Positions 30,394-63,041 of a stretch of 64,000 bases of DNA are shown in pieces. The stretch lies in assembly GCA_964486505.1 (NCBI GenBank), contig CAZAMC010000003.1, positions 139,120-203,119 on the forward strand, in the 5' to 3' direction. Position numbers and translations under genes: made by a program. Source of the stretch: an uncultured Gammaproteobacteria bacterium. GTDB lineage: Bacteria; Patescibacteriota; Patescibacteriia; PEXW01. The notes beneath the pieces are model-generated. The model was not told where the DNA came from and ran no database searches. It worked only from the letters and a program-made list of their open reading frames with translations. Position 1 is the first letter of the stretch. Each line of letters opens with the position of its first letter.

Positions 30394-30545
30394 CCTCATT
30401 TCGCGGTTACAGTTCCGCGTGACGCGCTTTCGCGCATCCCGCTGCACCGTTCCCGCGAAGCCTCGGTCTACCTCGCAAACCCGTGCTCGTCCCGCGAGCG
30501 GGTCTGCGCTTCGTGTTTGCGAGGGCCCCAGAGAAATCTTGAAGT
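30394..30545 (+). repeat. tRNA-linked structured spacer repeat, copy 1
   Basis: ...tttcgcgg...cgaagcctcg...CTCGCAAACccgtgctcg...GTTTGCGAGggcccca; shares blocks with copy 2 and its long hairpin shows compensatory changes between copies. Confidence 0.45.
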
Positions 30546-30652: not shown

Positions 30653-30800
30653 GCTCGTTTCGTGCTTCACCCTCCGTGACCGCACGGTTGTTTGGTCACT
30701 GCGGGTTTTGCACGAAGCCTCGCTGAACCCCGCAAACCCGTGCTCGCCTTCGGCTCCGCTCCTGCTTTGCGGGGACCCCAATGCTACTTAAGGCACACAT
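30653..30800 (+). repeat. tRNA-linked structured spacer repeat, copy 2
   Basis: ...tttcgtgc...cgaagcctcg...CCCGCAAAcccgtgctcg...TTTGCGGGgacccca. Confidence 0.45.
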
Positions 30801-54422: not shown

Positions 54423-54821
54423 CTAACGAATCCGCACTAATTTCCCTTTACGTTTGATAATATTCTTGTAATCCCACTGGATGGTTTTGGCTTTGCGTAA
54501 CCAGCGTTTGATCTCTGCGCGTTTCAGTTCTCTGCTGGTCGTGTAGGTAATGCCAGCGGCCTTAAATTTTTTAACGTTGCCAACTGGAAAAAGATGTGGC
54601 TCAGAAAACGACATACCGCTCCAGAACATCAGCTGCACGCCCTGCTTACGCAGCGAATAGCCAACAATTGGGTTCCCGGCTAGGAACCACACGGGCCCGC
54701 CGTGCCACACTTTACTCTCAGCTTTTGGGAGTGAGGCATCAATCACCCGACGTAAGGCATTGCAAATGCTCTGCACATTCTTTGTTTGCGAGCGGTTGTA
54801 GGTAGTAATTGCGTTGGTCAT
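54423..54821 (-). CDS. DUF1801 (YdhG-like) domain protein
   Basis: Start chosen at MTNAITTYNRSQ...; ...ESKVWHGGPVWFLAGNPIVGYSLRKQGVQLMFW... matches the DUF1801 pattern. The track ORF's N-terminal extension overlaps tRNA-Ala and was trimmed. Confidence 0.65.
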   Translation of the reverse strand: MTNAITTYNRSQTKNVQSICNALRRVIDASLPKAESKVWHGGPVWFLAGNPIVGYSLRKQGVQLMFWSGMSFSEPHLFPVGNVKKFKAAGITYTTSRELKRAEIKRWLRKAKTIQWDYKNIIKRKGKLVRIR

Positions 54822-54924
54822 AGCTGGATCGTAGCAAGTGCAAGCACCTCGTTGCAATGCGTTAGCAATTCTTATGAAAAATACTGCACTTGTAAAACAG
54901 GGAGTGCGCTTCGTATAGTGTTCC

Positions 54925-54999
54925 TGGTGGACCGTAGCGGATTTGAACCGCTGACCCCCGCATTGCAAATGCGGTGCTCTACCGCTGAGCTAACGGCCC
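54925..54999 (-). tRNA. tRNA-Ala (anticodon TGC)
   Basis: Reverse complement is GGGCCGTTAGCTCAGCGGTAGAGCACCGCATTTGCAATGCGGGGGTCAGCGGTTCAAATCCGCTACGGTCCACCA: G3:U70, anticodon TGC. Confidence 0.9.
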
Positions 55000-55275
55000 T
55001 TAGAGGGAATCAGTCGTTTCTTCCTGCGGCGTAACCGTAGGCTCGTTCGGATTGAACACCTTTTGCAAGCCTTTGCCAAGCCCACCGCTCATGAGCAGGA
55101 AGGCCAGGATGATAAGGAAAACGCCGACAAGCTTGTACATGAGACGCGTACCGCCATCACTGCCCAGGTGTTGCTCGGCCCACTCAATGCGGCCCAGGTT
55201 GTTCATGAGCCATTCCGACTTCCAGATGATGACGAAGCCAATGGCGATGACGATGATACCAACGAGGTATTTCAT
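55000..55275 (-). CDS. Small two-TM membrane protein (91 aa)
   Basis: Start chosen at MKYLVGIIVIAIGFVII; second TM at LVGVFLIILAFLLM. Confidence 0.4.
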   Translation of the reverse strand: MKYLVGIIVIAIGFVIIWKSEWLMNNLGRIEWAEQHLGSDGGTRLMYKLVGVFLIILAFLLMSGGLGKGLQKVFNPNEPTVTPQEETTDSL

Positions 55276-55419
55276 ACAGTTGATTCTACCACGAGGGGTC
55301 CCCGCAAAGTTGGCACGGAACAAAGTGAGCACGACTTTGCGGGGCAAAGCGAGGCTTCGTCCGTAGGACGGTGGGGGTCTGCGAACGCGGACACGCGGAA
55401 CTCGATGGACGAAACGAGC

Positions 55420-55496
55420 TGGTGGGCAACGTAGGAGTCGAACCTACGACCTTCTCGGTGTAAACGAGACGCTCTAACCAACTGAGCTAGTTGCCC
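55420..55496 (-). tRNA. tRNA-Val (anticodon TAC)
   Basis: Reverse complement is GGGCAACTAGCTCAGTTGGTTAGAGCGTCTCGTTTACACCGAGAAGGTCGTAGGTTCGACTCCTACGTTGCCCACCA: 77 nt. Confidence 0.9.
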
Positions 55497-55685
55497 AAAA
55501 TACTGCTGCCTTCGATGTAAACCCGCCTCGACTCGCGGCTTTTTCGACGCGAGGCGGGCGAGACGCTCTATCCGGGGCAGCGCCGGACGCTACGCACACT
55601 CGCGTCCGTCGGCGCTCTCCCGCCGTACGGCGGGATCGCTGCTGCCCGTTCCACCTTCGGTGAAACCCAACTGAGCTAGTTGCCC
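55497..55685 (-). pseudogene. Decayed tRNA-Val-derived pseudo-copy (5' acceptor/D-arm fragment + D-stem/anticodon-loop fragment with inserted hairpins, no T-arm)
   Basis: Minus strand reads GGGCAACTAGCTCAGTTGGGTT-(~95 nt)-ATAGAGCGTCTCG-CCCGCCTCGCGTCGAAAAAGCCGCGAGTCGAGGCGGG-TTTACAT..., directly abutting the intact tRNA-Val 5' end. Confidence 0.4.
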
Positions 55686-55807
55686 GCATCGGGAGTATAC
55701 TCGCACTTGGCCTGAAACCCTAGCATTTGTAGCACTTTTTTGGCTAGAGGTGTAGGGTAGGGGGTGCCCTTCAGCAAAAGTTCAGGTAGCCAGAACACCC
55801 TGGAAAC

Positions 55808-56485
55808 ATGCGCATTCTCCTCATTGAAGACGAGCACAAGATAGCCAACGCCCTGAAGAAAGGCTTGGAGCAGGAAGCCTATGCCGTGGACGTCCTCTAC
55901 GAAGGCAGGCAAGGGCTGGCCCGCGCACTCCGGGGGAACTACGACCTCCTTATCCTGGATCGCATGCTCCCTGGCATTTCAGATGGTTTGGTCATTGGCC
56001 AGGAAATTCGCAAAGCTGGACTCCACCAGCCCATCCTCGTCCTCACTGCTCGGGATGCAACCGCAGATCGCGTGCATGGTTTAGACAGCGGTGCTGATGA
56101 CTACCTGGTAAAGCCATTCTCTTTCGAAGAGCTCCTCGCGCGCGTCCGCGCCTTACTGCGACGTCCCAACCAAGTGATGAGCACGACGCTGCGGGTGGGC
56201 GACCTCGAACTGCACCCCGATACCTTCAAAGTTTCCCGAGCGGGGAAGACGATTGACCTCTCGAACAAGGAATTTGCGCTCCTGGAGTACCTCATGCGCA
56301 ATCCCAACCGCATTCTGACGAAAGATCAGATCATCCAGCACGTGTGGGACTTCGACGCCGACATCTTGCCGAACACGGTGGAAGCGTTCATCGCCAGCCT
56401 GCGGCAAAAAGTTGACCGGCCCTTCAACCCGCCGCTCATCCACACCGTGCGGGGCTTCGGCTACAAATTCACCACTACCCCATGA
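55808..56485 (+). CDS. OmpR-family response regulator
   Basis: Receiver domain (MRILLIEDE...LLILDRMLPG...DDYLVKPF) and winged-helix output domain (...LLEYLMRNPNRILTKDQIIQHVW...). Confidence 0.9.
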   Translation: MRILLIEDEHKIANALKKGLEQEAYAVDVLYEGRQGLARALRGNYDLLILDRMLPGISDGLVIGQEIRKAGLHQPILVLTARDATADRVHGLDSGADDYLVKPFSFEELLARVRALLRRPNQVMSTTLRVGDLELHPDTFKVSRAGKTIDLSNKEFALLEYLMRNPNRILTKDQIIQHVWDFDADILPNTVEAFIASLRQKVDRPFNPPLIHTVRGFGYKFTTTP

Positions 56486-57519
56486 GCTTCGTCCTTCAAC
56501 TACAGAAATTTTTCCGCGCCCCCGTCACCCGGCTCACGCTCTGGTACGTCCTCATCGTCATGGTGATTAGCGTTGGCTTTAGTGCCATCATCTACCGGCA
56601 AACGGCGGCGCAGCTTAAGGTAGACTTCATTCCACGTGGACGCGTGATGATGGACTTCGGTGACCCATTCACTGAACCAATCCGCACACGCGTTCAAGAA
56701 CTTTTCGAGCAGCAGTACGACCTCGCCACTGGCCACCTTCGCAATCAACTCATCATTATCAACCTCGTCGTGCTCGGCGCGGCGAGTTTAGCCAGCTACT
56801 TCCTAGCAAAGCGCACGCTCCGCCCAATTGAGGAGTCGCTGGAAGAGCAGCGACGCTTCACGGCCGACGCCTCGCACGAGCTGCGCACGCCGCTCACGGC
56901 CATGCGCTCGGAAATTGAAGTTGCACTGCGTAACGCAAATACAAAGCCCGGAGAGCACGTCGACATTCTCCGCAGTAATTTGGAAGAAATTCACCGCTTA
57001 GAACAGCTCTCCCGTGGCTTGCTCCGCTTAGCGCGCAGTGAAGTAGATGCGAAAGGTGTGGCCTGGGAGGTCACGCCGGTGAGTGCCATCGTTGACGATG
57101 CCGTGCGACAAGTGACGCCCCATGCGGAGAAAAAGCACATCACCCTCGACCGTGTAGACATTGGCGGTTCGTGGCGCGGGGACAAGCATAGCTTCGTGGA
57201 GCTCCTCGTCATCTTGCTCGACAACGCCATCAAGTACAGCGATGAGAAAACGACGGTGCGCGTCGCAGGGAACGCGAGCAGCCGACACGTGAGTCTACGC
57301 GTGCAAGATCACGGCATTGGCATGAAAGCGTCTGATATCCCCCACATCTTCGACCGCTTCTACCGCGCCGATTCCTCACGCACGAAGAACACTGTGGATG
57401 GCTACGGCTTGGGTCTGCCTATCGCCAAGCAAATTGTGGAGCGGTTCAACGGGAAAATCTCCGTAATGAGCACCATTGGCGAAGGTTCGACGTTCACAGT
57501 GACATTCCCGAGGGCGTAA
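56482..57519 (+). CDS. Sensor histidine kinase (two TM helices, short periplasmic loop)
   Basis: HisKA H-box ADASHELRTPLTAM and HATPase_c N/G boxes (LLDNAIKYS, DHGIGM, GYGLGL); 4-nt overlap with the regulator gene. Confidence 0.85.
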   Translation: MSFVLQLQKFFRAPVTRLTLWYVLIVMVISVGFSAIIYRQTAAQLKVDFIPRGRVMMDFGDPFTEPIRTRVQELFEQQYDLATGHLRNQLIIINLVVLGAASLASYFLAKRTLRPIEESLEEQRRFTADASHELRTPLTAMRSEIEVALRNANTKPGEHVDILRSNLEEIHRLEQLSRGLLRLARSEVDAKGVAWEVTPVSAIVDDAVRQVTPHAEKKHITLDRVDIGGSWRGDKHSFVELLVILLDNAIKYSDEKTTVRVAGNASSRHVSLRVQDHGIGMKASDIPHIFDRFYRADSSRTKNTVDGYGLGLPIAKQIVERFNGKISVMSTIGEGSTFTVTFPRA

Positions 57520-57692
57520 TGCTTCTGTCATTCTGAGTCCCGTCCTCGAACGGGACGAAGAATCTCATCAGCTTGAAAGCCTTGTGAGATCCTTCGCCCG
57601 CCAGTAGGCGTGCTCAGGATGACAAGGATTCTTTCAGCCTCCTTTCAGCCACCGAGCGTACGGTTGGCCTATTCACCCTTTTCTGGTCACCT

Positions 57693-59054
57693 ATGAACGC
57701 CCTTACCCGCGGGGTACGCAATGCCTTCCGTAACCCGCTCCGCACGCTCGCTGTCACCGCTATCCTGGGCATTAGTTTGGGGCTGGTTGTCGTCATGCTG
57801 GCGGCGCGCAGTGCCGTGACTGCCCGTATTACCGAGGTGAAAGAATCAATTGGCAACACGGTGACGGTTACGCCAGCTGGTGCCCGCGGGTTCATTGGCG
57901 GTGGTGAGCCGCTCACCCAAGCGAAGGTGGATGGGCTGGCGAGCATTGCAAACGTGACGAGTGTGGATGCGACCATTGATGCCATGCTCCGTGCCAATGA
58001 TGACACCTCATTGGAATCGGCTGTGGAAGCCGGCAGCCTAGGCGGCCGGCAGCAGCGGGTATTTGTTGGCAGTGATGAGCGTTCGGGCACCGTGCAGTCG
58101 GCACCGGATGGTGGAACATTCACGCCGCCCATTTTTGCCATTGGCACCAACAATCCATCATACGCTGGGGAAATGGTCGGCGCGTCGGTGAACATTTCGG
58201 ATGGCTCCGCGTTCGAAGCAGGCACCGATGCCAACGTGGCGATCATTGGCAAAACCTTAGCCGAAAAGAATAGCGTAAGCGTTGGGAAAACCTTCAAAGC
58301 GTATGACACGGATACCACCGTTGTGGGTATCTACGACGCCGGCAACCAGTTCGCTAACAATGCAGTGGTCTTCCCGCTCAAGACCTTGCAGAAGCTATCG
58401 GATCAAGTGGACGACGTGACCTCGGCAGTCGTCCACGTGAACTCGTCGGATAACCTGGCTAGTGTGACGAGCGCCGTGCAGGAGAACATGGGGGATACGG
58501 CCGACGTGAGCTCATCGGAAGAGTCGGTCAAAGCCGCCATCACGCCCCTGGAGAACATCCACAGCATTGCCACCACCAGCCTCATCGGTGCGCTCATTGC
58601 CGCCACAGTCATCTCCCTGCTGGCCATGGTCATGATCGTCCGCGAGCGCCGCAAGGAAATTGCCGTGCTCAAAGCCATTGGCGCCAGTGAGCCGACCATC
58701 ATAACGCAGTTCGTTTCGGAGTCGGTCATCCTGTCGTTGCTCGGCAGCGTCGTCGGCATTGTCCTCGGCTTCATCTTGAGCAACCCAATCTTGCGCGCCC
58801 TGCTCAACTCCAGCACGAGTACGACGGGTGCGCCGAGTGTCAGTGCTGGTGAAGGTCCAGGACGAGGCATCCGCGTGGCGATCGGCGGTTTTCGTGCCGT
58901 ACGTGGAGCAGTGCAGGATCTCACCGCGGTCGTGGACTGGCACCTGATTGTCTACGGCGTGCTGGCGGCCATTGTTGTCGCCATCGTTGGCGCGGCGTTC
59001 CCCGCCTGGCTTATTGGCAAAGTGCGGCCGGCTGAAGTTCTCCGGAGCGAATAA
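57693..59054 (+). CDS. ABC transporter permease, FtsX/MacB-like (one N-terminal TM, large extracytoplasmic domain, three C-terminal TMs)
   Basis: MacB_PCD-like topology and a C-terminal FtsX domain (...ERRKEIAVLKAIGASEPTIITQFVSESVILSLLGSVVGIVLG...). Confidence 0.8.
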   Translation: MNALTRGVRNAFRNPLRTLAVTAILGISLGLVVVMLAARSAVTARITEVKESIGNTVTVTPAGARGFIGGGEPLTQAKVDGLASIANVTSVDATIDAMLRANDDTSLESAVEAGSLGGRQQRVFVGSDERSGTVQSAPDGGTFTPPIFAIGTNNPSYAGEMVGASVNISDGSAFEAGTDANVAIIGKTLAEKNSVSVGKTFKAYDTDTTVVGIYDAGNQFANNAVVFPLKTLQKLSDQVDDVTSAVVHVNSSDNLASVTSAVQENMGDTADVSSSEESVKAAITPLENIHSIATTSLIGALIAATVISLLAMVMIVRERRKEIAVLKAIGASEPTIITQFVSESVILSLLGSVVGIVLGFILSNPILRALLNSSTSTTGAPSVSAGEGPGRGIRVAIGGFRAVRGAVQDLTAVVDWHLIVYGVLAAIVVAIVGAAFPAWLIGKVRPAEVLRSE

Positions 59055-59065
59055 TCCTTAACTCT

Positions 59066-59737
59066 ATGATTACTGTCCAAAAACTCTCAAAATCATTTAC
59101 CAGTGCGGGGAGCAAGGTGCACGCCCTCCGTGATGTAAGCTTCCAAGTAGAGCCCGGTCAGCTGGTTGCAGTCATTGGCAAGAGCGGCAGCGGCAAGAGC
59201 ACCTTGCTGGCGCTCCTCGGCGCACTCGATGCGCCAACCGACGGCGCCGTAATGGTCGGGCAAGATGATGTCACGCAATACCGTGGCCGCAAACTCCTGG
59301 CGTACCGCCGTGACACGATTGGCTTCGTCTTCCAGAACTACAACCTGGTGCCAAACCTTTCCGCACTCGAGAACGTCATGCTCCCCATGGAGTTTGCCGG
59401 AAAAGCCGCCAAGGAGCGCCACCGCCGCGCCACCCACCTCCTCAACCAAGTGGGTCTCACGGGCGACAAGCTCAAGCGCACCCCGGGCCGGCTCTCCGGC
59501 GGTGAGCAGCAGCGCGTGGCCATTGCCCGGGCGCTTGCCAACCAACCCAAACTCATCCTGGCCGATGAGCCAACCGGCAACCTGGACACGGCCACCAGCC
59601 AGCACATCGTGGAACTGCTGCGCTCGCTCGCGCGCTCCGAACAGACTACCATCATCACCGTCACCCACGATCCAGCCGTTGCCCAGCACGCCGACGTCAC
59701 CTACCAACTGCAGGATGGAAAACTCGTGAAAACGTAA
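59066..59737 (+). CDS. ABC transporter ATP-binding protein (MacB/LolD-like)
   Basis: Walker A GKSGSGKSTLL, signature LSGGEQQRVAIARAL, Walker B ILADEPTGNLD. Confidence 0.9.
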   Translation: MITVQKLSKSFTSAGSKVHALRDVSFQVEPGQLVAVIGKSGSGKSTLLALLGALDAPTDGAVMVGQDDVTQYRGRKLLAYRRDTIGFVFQNYNLVPNLSALENVMLPMEFAGKAAKERHRRATHLLNQVGLTGDKLKRTPGRLSGGEQQRVAIARALANQPKLILADEPTGNLDTATSQHIVELLRSLARSEQTTIITVTHDPAVAQHADVTYQLQDGKLVKT

Positions 59738-59753
59738 AACTGTTCAAGCACTA

Positions 59754-59777
59754 AGCCGGTGGTTAGCCCGGCTTTTT
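59754..59777 (+). terminator. Rho-independent terminator
   Basis: AGCCGG / CCGGCT stem followed by TTTTT. Confidence 0.5.
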
Positions 59778-59831
59778 GCTATATGAAAAGCCCGGCTTGG
59801 AAAGTCGGACTTAACGTACTCAAGAAATGTG

Positions 59832-60062
59832 CTACTTCACGATTACGCCGCGATCCCGGAGAAGAGCCTCCAATTTGCGGATGTACTTTGCGGTTGTCAG
59901 GTAGAACAACAAGAGCACTGCACCTTCAAACCACATATGCTCAAAAGCGGCTTTCCAGTTAGCCGGAGGGACTAATGCTTGGTATGCATATGAACCAATA
60001 GCGAAACCAAGAAATGTGCCCAACGCAGCCCTTTTGTACCACCACATTTTGCTAAACCACAT
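59832..60062 (-). CDS. Possible small membrane protein (76 aa)
   Basis: Two hydrophobic helices; Trp-rich N-terminus; no RBS identified. Confidence 0.35.
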   Translation of the reverse strand: MWFSKMWWYKRAALGTFLGFAIGSYAYQALVPPANWKAAFEHMWFEGAVLLLFYLTTAKYIRKLEALLRDRGVIVK

Positions 60063-60215
60063 GTTGTCTCCTTGCCCACAGAGTTTTGTTTTCTTTACTG
60101 GGTGTACAACGCTAAGCCAGCCATGTCAAGCAAGGTCGCATCTATATTCCACCACTCCCCATCAACGTTGGTATCGTCCCGCTCACACCTAGTAAAATCT
60201 GGGTATACTACGAAC

Positions 60216-60842
60216 ATGCCGAATCATGAGGTGGAAAAACCGAACGAGCATACCACTGGCTTGTTATGCCTCATGAGCATGCTGGGCTTGTATATCGTGC
60301 TCATCCTCCTGCTGGATGGCAGCCGTGTGAGCCGGAGCCTAATCTCGGCCGCTCTTGTCCTCACAGCAGCGGGCTGGGGGCTGCTCAATGCTCGACGAAG
60401 TGAATTTTTGCTCCAAGCACTCGGAGCAAAACCGCGCTGGCGGGCAACTATTGTGTTCACCATTATCACGTTCGTCCTCGTCCGGCTGGCAGGTTACGGG
60501 TTCGCCGCTGCATTCCCTGCTCAGGCGATTTCCCTGCGGCATGACGTAGTGTCGTGGCCGTTCCTGGCCTTCTACTTCCTAGTGAGCATCCCGCTGCAGG
60601 AATTCGTGTTCCGCGGGTACGCACTCACCGCACTGGAGCGCTGGACCAAAAACTGGGTTGCTCCCGTCATCATCAGCTCTGGCATCTACGCCTTCTTCCA
60701 CCTCCACTACGGCTGGAAGCTCGCCCTCGCCGTTTTCCCGCTGGGTTTGCTCTTCGGGTACATCAAACACCACACCCACTCGCTAGTGTACGCCACTATC
60801 ACGCACGCTATTGTCGCTTTGGTGTTCTACTACCTCATCTAA
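60216..60842 (+). CDS. CPBP family intramembrane metalloprotease (CAAX protease / Abi-like)
   Basis: Motif 1 QEFVFRGY (EExxxR-type), FxxxH (AFFHLHYG) and HxxxN/D-type (ITHAIVA). Start chosen at MPNHEVEK, 6 nt after TATACT, so likely leaderless. Confidence 0.75.
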   Translation: MPNHEVEKPNEHTTGLLCLMSMLGLYIVLILLLDGSRVSRSLISAALVLTAAGWGLLNARRSEFLLQALGAKPRWRATIVFTIITFVLVRLAGYGFAAAFPAQAISLRHDVVSWPFLAFYFLVSIPLQEFVFRGYALTALERWTKNWVAPVIISSGIYAFFHLHYGWKLALAVFPLGLLFGYIKHHTHSLVYATITHAIVALVFYYLI

Positions 60843-61375
60843 CCCGCCTTCGCCTGCAGCCGCTGCAGCCCTGCGCGGGCCTTTTCTAACTCCATGAGAA
60901 ACGATGGCACGTACTGCTCGGGGTGAGCCTGAATTTTTTGTACAAGCTCGTCCACTGGTACGGCCATAAATTCTTCCACTTCCTCATTCACCTGCGGAAT
61001 TTTATCACTCATGCCCACGAAAAGGTGTGAAAGCCGTCGGCGCAGCGAACCGTCTTCCCCCGGGAATTCGTTGAGGAAGGCTTCGACGAAGTGAAGGTCG
61101 CAGGTAAAACCCATTTCCTCTGCCATTTCCCGCTGGGCGCTCTCTTCGGGTTTCTCGCTGTGCACAATCCCGCCACATGCTGAAATATCCCACATACCGG
61201 GAAAGTGCTTCTTGGTCTTGGCGCGCTTCTGCGCCCACACTTCACCCTTGGGCGTAAAAATGAAGATGATGGCGTTGGGTGTAATGTGGTTGTCACGCTC
61301 GGCTTCTTCCCGCGTCACCGTACGCACGACATTGCCTTGCTCATCCATGACGTTGAGAACTTCGGTGTTGGACAT
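60839..61375 (-). CDS. NUDIX hydrolase (Idi-like subgroup)
   Basis: Nudix box GGIVHSEKPEESAQREMAEEMG; high-GC coding. Confidence 0.8.
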   Translation of the reverse strand: MSNTEVLNVMDEQGNVVRTVTREEAERDNHITPNAIIFIFTPKGEVWAQKRAKTKKHFPGMWDISACGGIVHSEKPEESAQREMAEEMGFTCDLHFVEAFLNEFPGEDGSLRRRLSHLFVGMSDKIPQVNEEVEEFMAVPVDELVQKIQAHPEQYVPSFLMELEKARAGLQRLQAKAG

Positions 61376-61392
61376 AATTTTTAAAGCTAACC

Positions 61393-61944
61393 TTAAATGA
61401 GTGTTTTAATTTTGCGAAACACTTCCAAAATATCTGGAACGAAAATCGAGGAAATGAAACGTTTTTTATCTTCCACGGAAATATTCAGTATCGTAGCAAT
61501 CGGCCATGCTTCGAAACCAGCTCCCTTGCCCTGTTCAACCTTTAATTTCTCAACTGGACCGTCATACTTATAGGCAAAGACTGCCCGTAAAACATTGTTG
61601 GTTCTGTTGGTAACTGAATCATAGGACTTATTCCTATGCGTCTTAATGTGCATCAATTTCTCTGACGAAACTTTAAGCCCCGTTTCTTCTTCAATTTCCT
61701 TAACTGCAGTAGTGACGTAATCATCGCCATTCTCTACGTGCCCACCAACTGTGGCATCGAGCAAGTCAGGAAAAGTGTCCTTATCTTTTGCCCGATGCTG
61801 AAAAATGATCTTGCCATCCGGGGTATAAAACCAAACATGAATCTCTTGATGCAAGAGCCCCTGAGCGTGCACATTCGCACGCGAATCTTCACCCAGGATA
61901 TTCCCATGTTCGTCTACAACATTGATATTGGGTTGGTCGGTCAT
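61393..61944 (-). CDS. NUDIX hydrolase paralog (low-GC)
   Basis: Nudix box GGHVENGDDYVTTAVKEIEEETG; N-terminus homologous to the neighbouring NUDIX (V.DE.GN...R...H..GLLH); coding DNA conspicuously AT-rich relative to flanks. Confidence 0.8.
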   Translation of the reverse strand: MTDQPNINVVDEHGNILGEDSRANVHAQGLLHQEIHVWFYTPDGKIIFQHRAKDKDTFPDLLDATVGGHVENGDDYVTTAVKEIEEETGLKVSSEKLMHIKTHRNKSYDSVTNRTNNVLRAVFAYKYDGPVEKLKVEQGKGAGFEAWPIATILNISVEDKKRFISSIFVPDILEVFRKIKTLI

Positions 61945-62066: not shown

Positions 62067-63041
62067 TCAATCTTCGTCCTTCTTCTCTTTCTTCCCTCTC
62101 CTATTGTGGAAGGCTTTGTACACCTCACGCAGCTGCTGGTTGGTGACGTGCGTGTAGATCTGCGTGGTGGTGATACTCGCGTGGCCGAGCATGGATTGCA
62201 CGGATCGAATATCCGCGCCGTTCATCAATAAATCGGTGGCGTAGCTGTGGCGCAACGTGTGCGGCGTGATGCGCTTGGTAATCCCTGCGGCTTTGGCGTA
62301 GTGCTGCACGATGCGCTGAATAGACCGCGGCGTGAGGGGCTTGAAATTCTCGGCCGAGCGTTTCATAGCCCGGTCGTGACGCAAAAACATCCACTCCTCA
62401 TCATCACTGCGCTGCTTGAGGTACTCGCCCACCCAGTGCCGCGCGTTGTGGCTGAGGAATACCACACGCAGTTTGCTGCCTTTGCCACGCACGGTGAACT
62501 CATCTTTCTCTAGGTTCACCTGGTCCTTCTTCAATCCTGCCAGCTCCGACACGCGCAAACCGGTGGAGAAGAGCAGCTCCAGAATTGCCTTATCACGAAT
62601 CTGGACGAGGTTCGGTTGATCGGTTTTCATTGGCGCTTCCAAGAAGCGCTCCAAGTCCGCCCCTTCCATAAAACTCACCTGTCGTTCTTGTTGCTTGGCG
62701 AGCTCTACTTTCTCGGATGAGAGCGTCGTAACGTCCCGTTTGGCTAGGTACTTCAGGAAGGCGCGCAGGGCAATGAGGTGGTAGTTGCGCGTGCTCGCTT
62801 TGAGCAGCTCCTTCTGCGGGTTGACCAGGCGATTAAGGTACAAACGGTACTGCCGAACTTTCTCCGAAGTAATGTCTTTTGGATCCTGCAACTTGCCCCA
62901 CGCCAAGAACCGGCGGAGGTAAAAGTCGTAATTCTTCACCGTGAGCGGGGAAACGTTCTTCTCGATTTCCAAGTACTCCAAAAATTCGGTGAGGAGCTTG
63001 GAGAGTTGGGGAACAGCCATAGCGCGGATATTGTACGACAC
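62067..63041 (-). CDS. Tyrosine site-specific recombinase, XerC/XerD family
   Basis: N-terminal SAM-like domain (LTVKNYDFYLRRFLAWG) and catalytic R...HxxR...Y motifs (GLRVSEL, HTLRHSYATDLL, GHASITTTQIYTHV). Confidence 0.85.
   Translation of the reverse strand: MSYNIRAMAVPQLSKLLTEFLEYLEIEKNVSPLTVKNYDFYLRRFLAWGKLQDPKDITSEKVRQYRLYLNRLVNPQKELLKASTRNYHLIALRAFLKYLAKRDVTTLSSEKVELAKQQERQVSFMEGADLERFLEAPMKTDQPNLVQIRDKAILELLFSTGLRVSELAGLKKDQVNLEKDEFTVRGKGSKLRVVFLSHNARHWVGEYLKQRSDDEEWMFLRHDRAMKRSAENFKPLTPRSIQRIVQHYAKAAGITKRITPHTLRHSYATDLLMNGADIRSVQSMLGHASITTTQIYTHVTNQQLREVYKAFHNRRGKKEKKDED

Follow-up and report, generated by a model that had tools for sequence, protein, structure and literature searches.

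A partial tRNA-Val copy broken by conserved structured inserts, upstream of the intact gene in a Patescibacteria genome

The sequence considered here, which we call the window, is a stretch of DNA of 64 kilobases (kb), and our subject is a broken and incomplete copy of a valine transfer RNA gene, read on the minus strand and lying immediately upstream of the intact tRNA-Val(TAC) gene. The latter occupies positions 55496 to 55420 (minus strand) and is recognised by ARAGORN as well as by the Rfam tRNA model (73.2 bits). Just downstream comes the gene of a membrane protein of 91 amino acids (aa), with homologues only in metagenome bins of the Patescibacteria/Parcubacteria type; an alignment of these homologues served to retrieve the 160 loci, designated below by L and a number, that make up the comparison set. 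Among the loci fetched, the gene order tRNA-Val(TAC), small protein, tRNA-Ala(TGC) is widely kept. On the other side, positions 55790 to 55686 form a block shared with L006 and L082, in which a -10-like TATACT (55699 to 55694, minus strand) stands 8 nucleotides (nt) ahead of the broken copy. This block is the presumed promoter of the tRNA-Val operon; a scan for sigma-70 promoters did not call the conserved TATACT. The assembly derived from run SRR14932662 (L001) is identical through the entire broken copy and its junction with the intact gene, which speaks against an assembly artefact, provided that the window stems from other reads.

Anatomy of the copy and the empty site in relatives

Between positions 55685 and 55509 (minus strand, as are all the parts that follow) lies a collinear partial copy of positions 1 to 46 of tRNA-Val(TAC). 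It is laid out in three blocks, separated by an insert of 96 nt in the D-loop and by a hairpin of 37 nt, which makes 133 nt of inserts; a linker of 12 nt (CAGCAGTATTTT, 55508 to 55497) joins the copy to the gene, and 189 nt in all precede the intact tRNA. Block A, GGGCAACTAGCTCAGTTGG (55685 to 55667), reproduces exactly the 19 nt of tRNA positions 1 to 19, that is, the 5' strand of the acceptor, the 5' strand of the D-stem and the D-loop up to G19, and it constitutes the left member of a direct repeat, the right member of which is made of the first 19 nt of the intact gene. The D-loop insert begins with a hairpin of 19 nt, hairpin 1 (GTTTCACC-GAAG-GTGGAAC, 55666 to 55648, seen in the fold and the alignment), and goes on with a module of 77 nt folded as three helices (GGGCAGCAGCGA, then P2 and P3, then GCGCTGCCCCGGA; 55647 to 55571). 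Block B, TAGAGCGTCTCG (55570 to 55559), comprises the 3' strand of the D-stem and the 5' strand of the anticodon stem, and is identical to tRNA positions 21 to 32 at 12 sites out of 12. Inserted between tRNA positions 32 and 33, the GC-rich hairpin of 37 nt (55558 to 55522) has the termini CCCGCC...GGCGGG; its outer 9 base pairs are perfect, and its arms of 14 nt are 86% complementary. Block C, TTTACATCGAAGG (55521 to 55509), which corresponds to TTTACACCGAGAAGG in the tRNA (positions 33 to 46), differs from it by one substitution and a deletion of 2 nt, and represents the anticodon loop, the 3' strand of its stem and the start of the variable region.

A first-pass annotation of this DNA had described an exact copy of the first 20 nt of the tRNA, followed further on by the D-stem 3' half and the anticodon-stem 5' half, then by a perfect hairpin of 37 nt, the copy ending without a T-arm. 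The repeat is indeed exact, but it stops at 19 nt; the second segment is found as announced, after the insert of 96 nt; the hairpin does measure 37 nt, but it is perfect in its outer part only; and the copy, which ends at about position 46 of the alignment, lacks the 3' acceptor strand as well as the T-arm. We can thus understand it as a partial duplicate of the adjacent tRNA, as had been proposed, the pairwise alignment extending the similarity past the 5' block into blocks B and C. It does not make a complete cloverleaf: ARAGORN and Rfam call the intact gene alone, and nothing at the copy.

The 19-mer is present exactly twice in the 64 kb, its two copies standing 170 nt apart with non-coding sequence between them; with up to three mismatches, 3 matches are observed where 0.01 would be expected, and none of 100 shuffles attains these 3. 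A further shuffle statistic, based on chains of exact blocks, saturates in GC-rich sequence and discriminates poorly, and was set aside. The partial and the intact copies in the window are of the same allele. The 194 nt at this place fold at -95.9 kcal/mol (z = -4.5 against shuffles). Rfam, applied to the whole window at the gathering threshold and to positions 54500-56200 at E <= 10, returns tRNAs and chance matches only, which excludes group I introns, known ribozymes, riboswitches and tmRNAs. The terminator scan does not call the 37-nt hairpin as an intrinsic terminator. A BLAST search of the leader against the window finds no further copy, and no pseudo-copy was found at the other eight tRNAs of the window, apart from a lone palindromic match of 13 nt near tRNA-Ala. 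This match (54769 to 54757, minus strand) is an exact copy of the anticodon arm of tRNA-Ala(TGC), GCATTTGCAATGC, located about 160 nt downstream of that tRNA within an open reading frame (ORF) of the DUF1801 family, and we judge it to be probably due to chance.

The two closest syntenic relatives, L006 and L082, whose small proteins are 80% and 79% identical to that of the window, share with it the divergent response-regulator gene and the conserved upstream block, and in neither of them is the single tRNA-Val interrupted. The 8 nt that separate TATACT from the pseudo-copy in the window separate it, in L006, from the start of the intact tRNA. Aligned with these relatives, the window displays 189 extra nt, placed exactly after G19. 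The site, filled in the window, is therefore polymorphic, and its emptiness in L006 and L082 tells us that we are dealing with a lineage-specific insertion rather than with an ancient fixed leader. The idea put forward in the first-pass annotation that this would be the footprint of an insertion event was right in spirit, the upstream block of L006 and L082 leading into one uninterrupted tRNA-Val. As the pseudo-copy now sits where the 5' end of the ancestral tRNA was, it is most likely transcribed as a 5' leader of the present gene.

In a fold of the whole precursor (55685 to 55420, minus strand), the GGGCAAC of the pseudo-copy displaces the tRNA's own 5' strand and pairs with the 3' acceptor strand; such a duplicate acceptor strand could, according to this prediction, compete in folding or in processing by RNase P. 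At the other end of the gene, CCA leads directly into a conserved GC-rich trailer, about 130 nt long, which stands not only behind tRNA-Val (55276-55419, minus strand) but also behind the tRNA genes for Lys and Arg-TCG (30394-30520 and 30653-30790, plus strand); it recurs in L082 (842-, Ala) and, behind partial copies, in L008 (1563-) and L009 (2051-). Its consensus, GCTCGTTTCG...CGAAGCCTCGCT..ACCCCGCAAA...TTTGCGGGGACC, shows long-range pairing and has no match in Rfam, and it may be a lineage-specific element of tRNA 3' processing or termination. Further away, positions 55808-61944 of the window belong to a segment of about 6.4 kb that separates tRNA-Arg(TCT) from the pseudo-copy and carries two NUDIX genes and genes for a CAAX protease, an ABC ATPase, an FtsX/MacB permease, a histidine kinase and a response regulator. 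In several relatives (L003-L009 were compared) the Xer-like recombinase gene, tRNA-Arg(TCT) and tRNA-Val are adjacent; at least the response-regulator end of the segment is shared with L006 and L082.

Structured inserts and nuclease genes at tRNA loci

The inserts that break the copy are conserved elements, as judged by comparison with other genomes, and not the outcome of random decay. Homologues of the leader lie in partial tRNA copies at L008/L090, L002, L082 and L092: L008/L090 matches at 80% over 128 nt (E = 5e-25), and L002 at 82% over 67 nt including the flanks, a match that spans the 37-nt hairpin at the same 32/33 position of a partial tRNA-Val. Hairpin 1 is found at the same place with different arms, GTTTCACC/GGTGGAAC in the window, GTTCCGCC/GGCGGAAC in L008 and GTCCCGC/GCGGGAC in L002; since these changes are compensatory, its structure has been held across the three.

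A covariance model (R1) was built from the 77-nt module. It scores 95.6 bits (E = 1e-16) in the window, where the module has its sole copy, and it retrieves eight copies elsewhere, two of which are duplicates of the same contigs; a second model (R2), built from 8 copies, adds none. In the alignment 93% of the cells are paired, as against 29-45% when the partners are slid, figures that lean towards structure because the alignment was fitted to the model. Changes on both sides affect 11 of the 21 pairs, and the covariation observed was reached in none of 500 shuffles; helix P1 (GGGCAGC/GCUGCCC) is nearly invariant, and P2 and P3 are those that covary. Every copy (eight, in six independent contexts) sits inside a partial tRNA copy and in the sense of the tRNA. 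The module follows G19 in the D-loop of partial tRNA-Val (window, L008) and partial tRNA-Ala (L082), and it is lodged in the T-loop of 3' fragments of tRNA-Leu(GAG) (L011/L092), tRNA-Val (L014, two tandem units) and tRNA-Arg(TCG) (L099). The three independent T-loop insertions are each flanked by positions 57-58 on either side, a duplication of 2 nt; the D-type insertions have no target duplication. No module copy was found away from tRNA fragments in about 800 kb of other loci, and viral contigs yielded five weak matches (18-22 bits), about the number expected by chance, none adjoining a tRNA fragment.

The hairpins, for their part, behave as mobile DNA, to judge from where their sequences recur. 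One of them, GC-rich and 49 nt long, is 100% identical in a partial tRNA-Arg of L008 (389-437) and a partial tRNA-Val of L117 (2510-2558), in opposite orientations and beside nucleases that are 59% identical in alignment. A perfect palindrome of 20 nt, CCTGCCTGCCGGCAGGCAGG, is unchanged or nearly so (16-20 nt matched, with one mismatch in L009) in distant and even AT-rich genomes. Partial copies of the tRNAs for Leu, Val, His and Ala contain it, as do two intergenic sites away from tRNAs (L017 2455-2474, L111 845-864, L093 1838-1856, L130 3823-3838, L009 3478-3497, L029 3910-3926 and 5222-5241, L051 2858-2876), and it could be a mobile palindrome or else a widely recognised protein or uptake site.

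Broken tRNA copies of this kind are common in the loci of Patescibacteria. Once other tRNAs are masked, an exact self-fragment of at least 13 nt is found within 500 nt of 44 of the 245 tRNAs, and of none of the 245 when the sequence is reversed. Many of the partial copies are interrupted in the D-arm, the anticodon loop or the T-loop by GC-rich hairpins with termini CCCGCC/CCTGCC...GGCGGG/GGCAGG, and a frequent architecture consists of a 5' partial copy with a GC-rich hairpin in its D-arm, a short linker and the intact tRNA. (GC-rich hairpins are enriched about 3.4-fold near tRNAs, a figure confounded by intergenic location and given here as background.) Units of this sort may be amplified. 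In L132 (1-405) three units of 113 nt, each made of tRNA-Ile positions 1-22, a hairpin of 33 nt, positions 23-36 and a linker, precede an intact tRNA-Ile(TAT), with no nuclease gene in the array; in L014 (2648-2973) two units of 168 nt stand downstream of tRNA-Val, each ending with the last 20 nt of the tRNA, again with no nuclease gene. No complete interrupted tRNA without an intact partner was found.

Most often, the partial copy and the intact tRNA beside it represent different alleles (L002, L008, L003, L089, L005, L093). Besides, the intact tRNA-Val of the window is identical at 77 of 77 positions to that of L008, where the neighbouring protein is 74% identical, and at 60 of 77 to those of L006 and L082, where it is about 80% identical; identity of the tRNA does not track that of the neighbouring protein, and this fits a horizontal replacement of tRNA alleles. 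Three loci display a tRNA inside a tRNA (L089 317-568, L005 1319-1620, L093 1638-1890), a complete tRNA-Val interrupting, in the D-loop or variable region, an older gene for tRNA-Val that is of another allele and still recognisable in its two halves; in L005 and L089 an AT-rich stretch lies upstream of the inner gene.

In relatives of the window, a gene may take the place that is occupied here by the 12-nt linker. The ORF found in L017 and L111 between the hairpin-broken 5' fragment and the intact tRNA-Leu codes for a GIY-YIG catalytic domain (PF01541), and in L003 such an ORF lies between an intact tRNA-Val and its 3' fragment, the PF01541 matches having E = 1e-15 to 1e-16. A profile search identified 18 distinct GIY-YIG ORFs in the loci: about 12 of these end at most about 40 nt from a tRNA on the same strand, and 8-9 are preceded by a 5' fragment of that same tRNA in which a hairpin is lodged (L017, L111, L117, L094, L096, L008, L130). 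Several of the frames lack a stop codon ahead of the tRNA, read into it and terminate at a TAG in its 5' part or D-loop region (L094 786-1046, L130 3318-3647 and 3846-4127, L136 2286-2675). The proteins, of about 80 aa, consist of the catalytic domain only, and the nearest structures are those of UPF0213 members (1ywl, 1zg2). A published classification puts the stand-alone GIY-YIG domains of prokaryotes together with structure-specific nucleases of the Slx1-like type (PMC1564403).

A database-wide search yields 1595 homologues at E <= 1e-8. Three of six that were sampled lie directly upstream of a tRNA, in Daviesbacteria (L172), Moranbacteria (L175) and Desantisbacteria (L177), all with the succession partial copy, hairpin, nuclease gene, intact tRNA; the remaining three are located elsewhere. 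Viral contigs queried with a single GIY-YIG protein gave one partial match. Outside Patescibacteria, the same small GIY-YIG gene is found within a split 23S_rRNA_IVP gene of an Algoriphagus genome (L171 1332-1994), one of these three, where it too has the look of a mobile insertion, and in another contig it adjoins a bAvd and reverse-transcriptase pair (L170 1151-3237), which suggests that the gene is mobile in other settings too.

Origin of the insertion

We lean, with a confidence somewhat above even, towards seeing the insertion as the relic of a tRNA-targeted cassette of the homing-endonuclease type that would have lost its nuclease gene, and that would now be no more than a structured 5' leader, probably devoid of a role for the cell. 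The ancestral state would have been that of the empty-site relatives, a promoter directly followed by tRNA-Val. By analogy with SegB of phage T4, a nuclease would cut conserved motifs in the D-arm or T-loop of tRNA genes, and repair from a cassette-bearing template would insert the cassette, regenerate the essential tRNA and leave a partial copy behind. In the window, 189 nt were inserted after G19; since the insert is bounded by the 19-nt direct repeat, the intact gene survives downstream and the 5' partial copy (positions 1-46) is stranded upstream. The duplication of positions 57-58 at the T-loop sites of the module fits a staggered cut with 2-nt 3' overhangs, as made by SegB (PMC2330249). 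The nuclease gene, if it was once there, would subsequently have been lost, leaving the 12-nt linker. Hairpin 1, the 77-nt module and the 37-nt hairpin belong to families of insert elements that colonise the loops of partial copies. Their role might be to disable the partial copy as a target of the nuclease or of recombination, or to act as cis sites for a structure-specific nuclease, unless they are independent passengers that can be tolerated only in a non-essential copy. The relic would most likely be transcribed from the old tRNA promoter as a structured leader of 189 nt, to be removed by RNase P.

Several points weigh against this scenario. No GIY-YIG gene or recognisable remnant was found in the linker or anywhere in the 64-kb window, by a profile search of all its six-frame ORFs, so that the connection of this locus with a nuclease is drawn by analogy with its relatives. 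At none of the eight module copies does a nuclease gene directly separate the partial copy from the intact tRNA. The two copies in the window are of the same allele, which leaves room for a local duplication. Cutting of tRNA genes by these catalytic-domain-only, UPF0213-like nucleases is putative, being transposed from better known enzymes, and an intact tRNA standing beside a nuclease gene should stay a target, its immunity being unaccounted for. Finally, the strong covariation of the module, together with its fixed sense orientation, hints at a role at the RNA level that would fall outside this explanation.

In another view, unlikely in our opinion but the most serious of the rivals, the module and the GC-rich hairpins would form a mobile class of their own, aimed at the exposed loops of tRNA, namely the elbow formed by the D-loop and T-loop, and the anticodon loop. 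They would move at the level of RNA or single strands, or as palindromic DNA, the partial duplication rescuing the gene and the GIY-YIG protein being a fellow traveller or a trans-acting nuclease. The D-loop and T-loop insertion sites are neighbours in the folded tRNA and unrelated in sequence, and it is there, after G19 (window, L008, L082) or at 57/58 (L011/L092, L014, L099), that the module is met, in four tRNA identities. Its constant sense orientation, its paired cells exceeding those of the slid controls and its double-sided changes (11/21) speak for such an element, as do the 49-nt hairpin kept identical, in opposite orientations, beside nucleases apparently only ~50-60% identical (L008/L117), and the palindrome of 20 nt shared by distant genomes. 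Yet the module has a single copy in the window and none away from tRNA fragments in the other loci, its D-type insertions duplicate no target, and an interrupted tRNA lacking an intact partner is missing from the collection; moreover, the hairpins occur in both orientations, which favours movement at the DNA level and disfavours an RNA-level mechanism. The covariation of the module and folds as stable as z = -4.5 and -5.0 could be read as the mark of a functional tRNA-like leader that regulates or assists the operon of tRNA-Val, the small protein and tRNA-Ala, for example by forming alternative pairs with the 3' strand of the tRNA, by controlling its processing or by serving as a decoy. Its location at the 5' end of the presumed transcript, and the predicted fold, where GGGCAAC takes the 3' acceptor strand of the intact gene as its partner, which makes an effect on processing conceivable, would suit this interpretation. 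We nevertheless consider it improbable: the closest syntenic relatives keep the same operon without the leader, no Rfam family matches it, and homologous modules lie upstream, downstream and at other tRNAs, hence at no conserved position relative to any gene.

A plain tandem duplication of the 5' part of tRNA-Val, arising through slippage or unequal crossing-over and then altered by neutral decay and chance insertions, would account for the common allele of the two copies, for the identity of the 19-nt and 12-nt blocks and for the small extent of change in block C. Decay had been offered in the first-pass annotation as one origin of the arrangement, and this does not hold for the hairpins: the D-loop insert is a covarying module conserved in other partial tRNA copies, and the 37-nt hairpin has its homologue in L002 at the same tRNA position. 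With 133 nt of inserts related to those of other genomes, confined to loops and marked by compensatory changes, in an architecture that recurs with foreign alleles and nuclease genes, we give this reading little credit. Still less can be granted to the classic attachment (att) site scar, also suggested at first, which would have a prophage or island enter tRNA-Val by way of an integrase and later be excised or deleted. Partial tRNA copies beside tRNA genes are the usual mark of integration (PMC9897764), a direct repeat of a tRNA segment is present, a tyrosine recombinase gene lies at 62067-63041, and tRNA-Arg(TCT) and tRNA-Val, adjacent in some relatives, are 6.4 kb apart here. But the repeat is the 5' part of the tRNA (positions 1-19) and does not run to its 3' end; its members, 170 nt apart, enclose only inserts, and no integrase-bearing element between the two repeats was seen in the 160 loci; the response-regulator side is ancestral, being common to the empty-site relatives, and module-bearing phage contigs do not exceed chance. 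An integrase origin was rejected because the only tyrosine recombinase nearby is kept in relatives at 82-94% identity, in synteny with tRNA-Arg(TCT), and is thus an Xer-like gene of the housekeeping kind. The faintest candidate, which we find barely credible, is that of an interrupted functional tRNA giving a second tRNA-Val, the inserts being introns of group I, archaeal or new type. Patescibacteria are rich in insertions in tRNA and rRNA genes (PMC13011429, PMC11270868), and the inserts do lie in loops; against this, they measure 37-96 nt, show no group I match and accompany a damaged 3' strand of the anticodon arm. The missing 3' third of the tRNA refutes functional introns for this copy. 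As for a bulge-helix-bulge motif, an inspection by eye shows the 37-nt insert pairing with itself right from the junction, and the set of exons is incomplete.

If the cassette interpretation is extended beyond the window, it leads to a broader and more speculative proposal, which we put forward tentatively and do not regard as the probable outcome. Patescibacteria and neighbouring candidate phyla would harbour an undescribed mobile system, made of a stand-alone GIY-YIG nuclease and GC-rich structured inserts (palindromes of 20-50 nt and the 77-nt module), that colonises the D-loop/T-loop elbow and the anticodon loop, survives in an essential single-copy gene by duplicating the part that it disrupts, and drives horizontal replacement of tRNA alleles. 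The module may, in such a system, be a new structured RNA or DNA motif for mobility or for immunity to the nuclease.

Known systems and significance

The nearest precedent is SegB, a free-standing GIY-YIG homing endonuclease of the T4/T6 phage tRNA cluster, which recognises the T-loop motif GGTTCRANTCC and leaves 2-nt 3' overhangs (PMC2330249). It shows presence/absence polymorphism between relatives and homing in tRNA clusters with co-conversion of the flanking tRNA alleles (PMC2330249, PMC13096335), and it drives tandem amplification of tRNA segments (PMC13096335). In the relatives of the window, too, a GIY-YIG nuclease gene is lodged among tRNA genes. However, SegB is a phage protein with a DNA-binding domain, whereas the proteins considered here, known from their sequence, are cellular, about 80 aa long and limited to the catalytic domain; a partial tRNA duplicate holding GC-rich structured inserts, which is part of the cassettes, has no described counterpart in Seg elements; and the window itself has no nuclease gene.

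Closer in taxonomy, the rRNA genes of the Candidate Phyla Radiation (CPR) contain short inserts (<200 base pairs) that are not introns, at the tips or bases of stem-loops, some of them with GIY-YIG ORFs (PMC11270868). The likeness, drawn from their description, is that of short inserts other than group I or II introns, in a structural RNA gene of the same phylum; but those reside in a functional rRNA gene, whereas the inserts of the window lie in a non-functional partial tRNA copy beside the intact gene. Group I introns are also known in the anticodon loops of Patescibacteria tRNAs, at position 35/36 (PMC13011429). These are self-splicing ribozymes in complete genes, unlike the short inserts of an incomplete copy, for which Rfam offers no group I match. 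The attL/attR fragments left by integrases, for their part, flank elements of kilobase size that carry an integrase, and the part repeated is usually the 3' one; Williams reportedly noted in 2002 that tRNA fragments at att sites usually repeat the stretch that starts at the crossover site and reaches the 3' end of the tRNA. In the window, by contrast, it is the 5' part that is repeated at a short distance, with no element integrase and with structured inserts inside the fragment.

Hairpin-dependent mobile elements, such as REP/RAYT, the ends of IS200/IS605 and integron attC sites, may be compared with the inserts for their GC-rich imperfect palindromes, for a structure kept over sequence and for their presence in both orientations. 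They differ in that no Y1/HUH transposase or integron integrase was seen here, in the low copy number of the inserts, and in the restriction of the module to tRNA fragments. The many dispersed copies typical of REP/MITE-like elements are lacking, BLAST and the model search both finding one copy in 64 kb. In the open-access literature that was searched, we came across neither the pairing of hairpin-interrupted partial tRNA copies with GIY-YIG genes nor the 77-nt module.

Taken alone, the feature of the window is a dead relic of low functional importance. The pattern that it exposes is of more consequence: in these reduced genomes, most of whose tRNAs are single-copy and essential, tRNA genes have apparently been invaded and replaced, repeatedly, by what seem to be small cassettes that leave hairpin-broken partial copies behind. 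If this is true, the widespread orphan proteins of the UPF0213 or stand-alone GIY-YIG type would be given a testable role, and the discordant tRNA alleles of close relatives would be explained. Annotators would have to be cautious when they come across tRNA-like fragments in genomes of the candidate phyla, and the covarying motif of 77 nt would join the structured elements that await an explanation.

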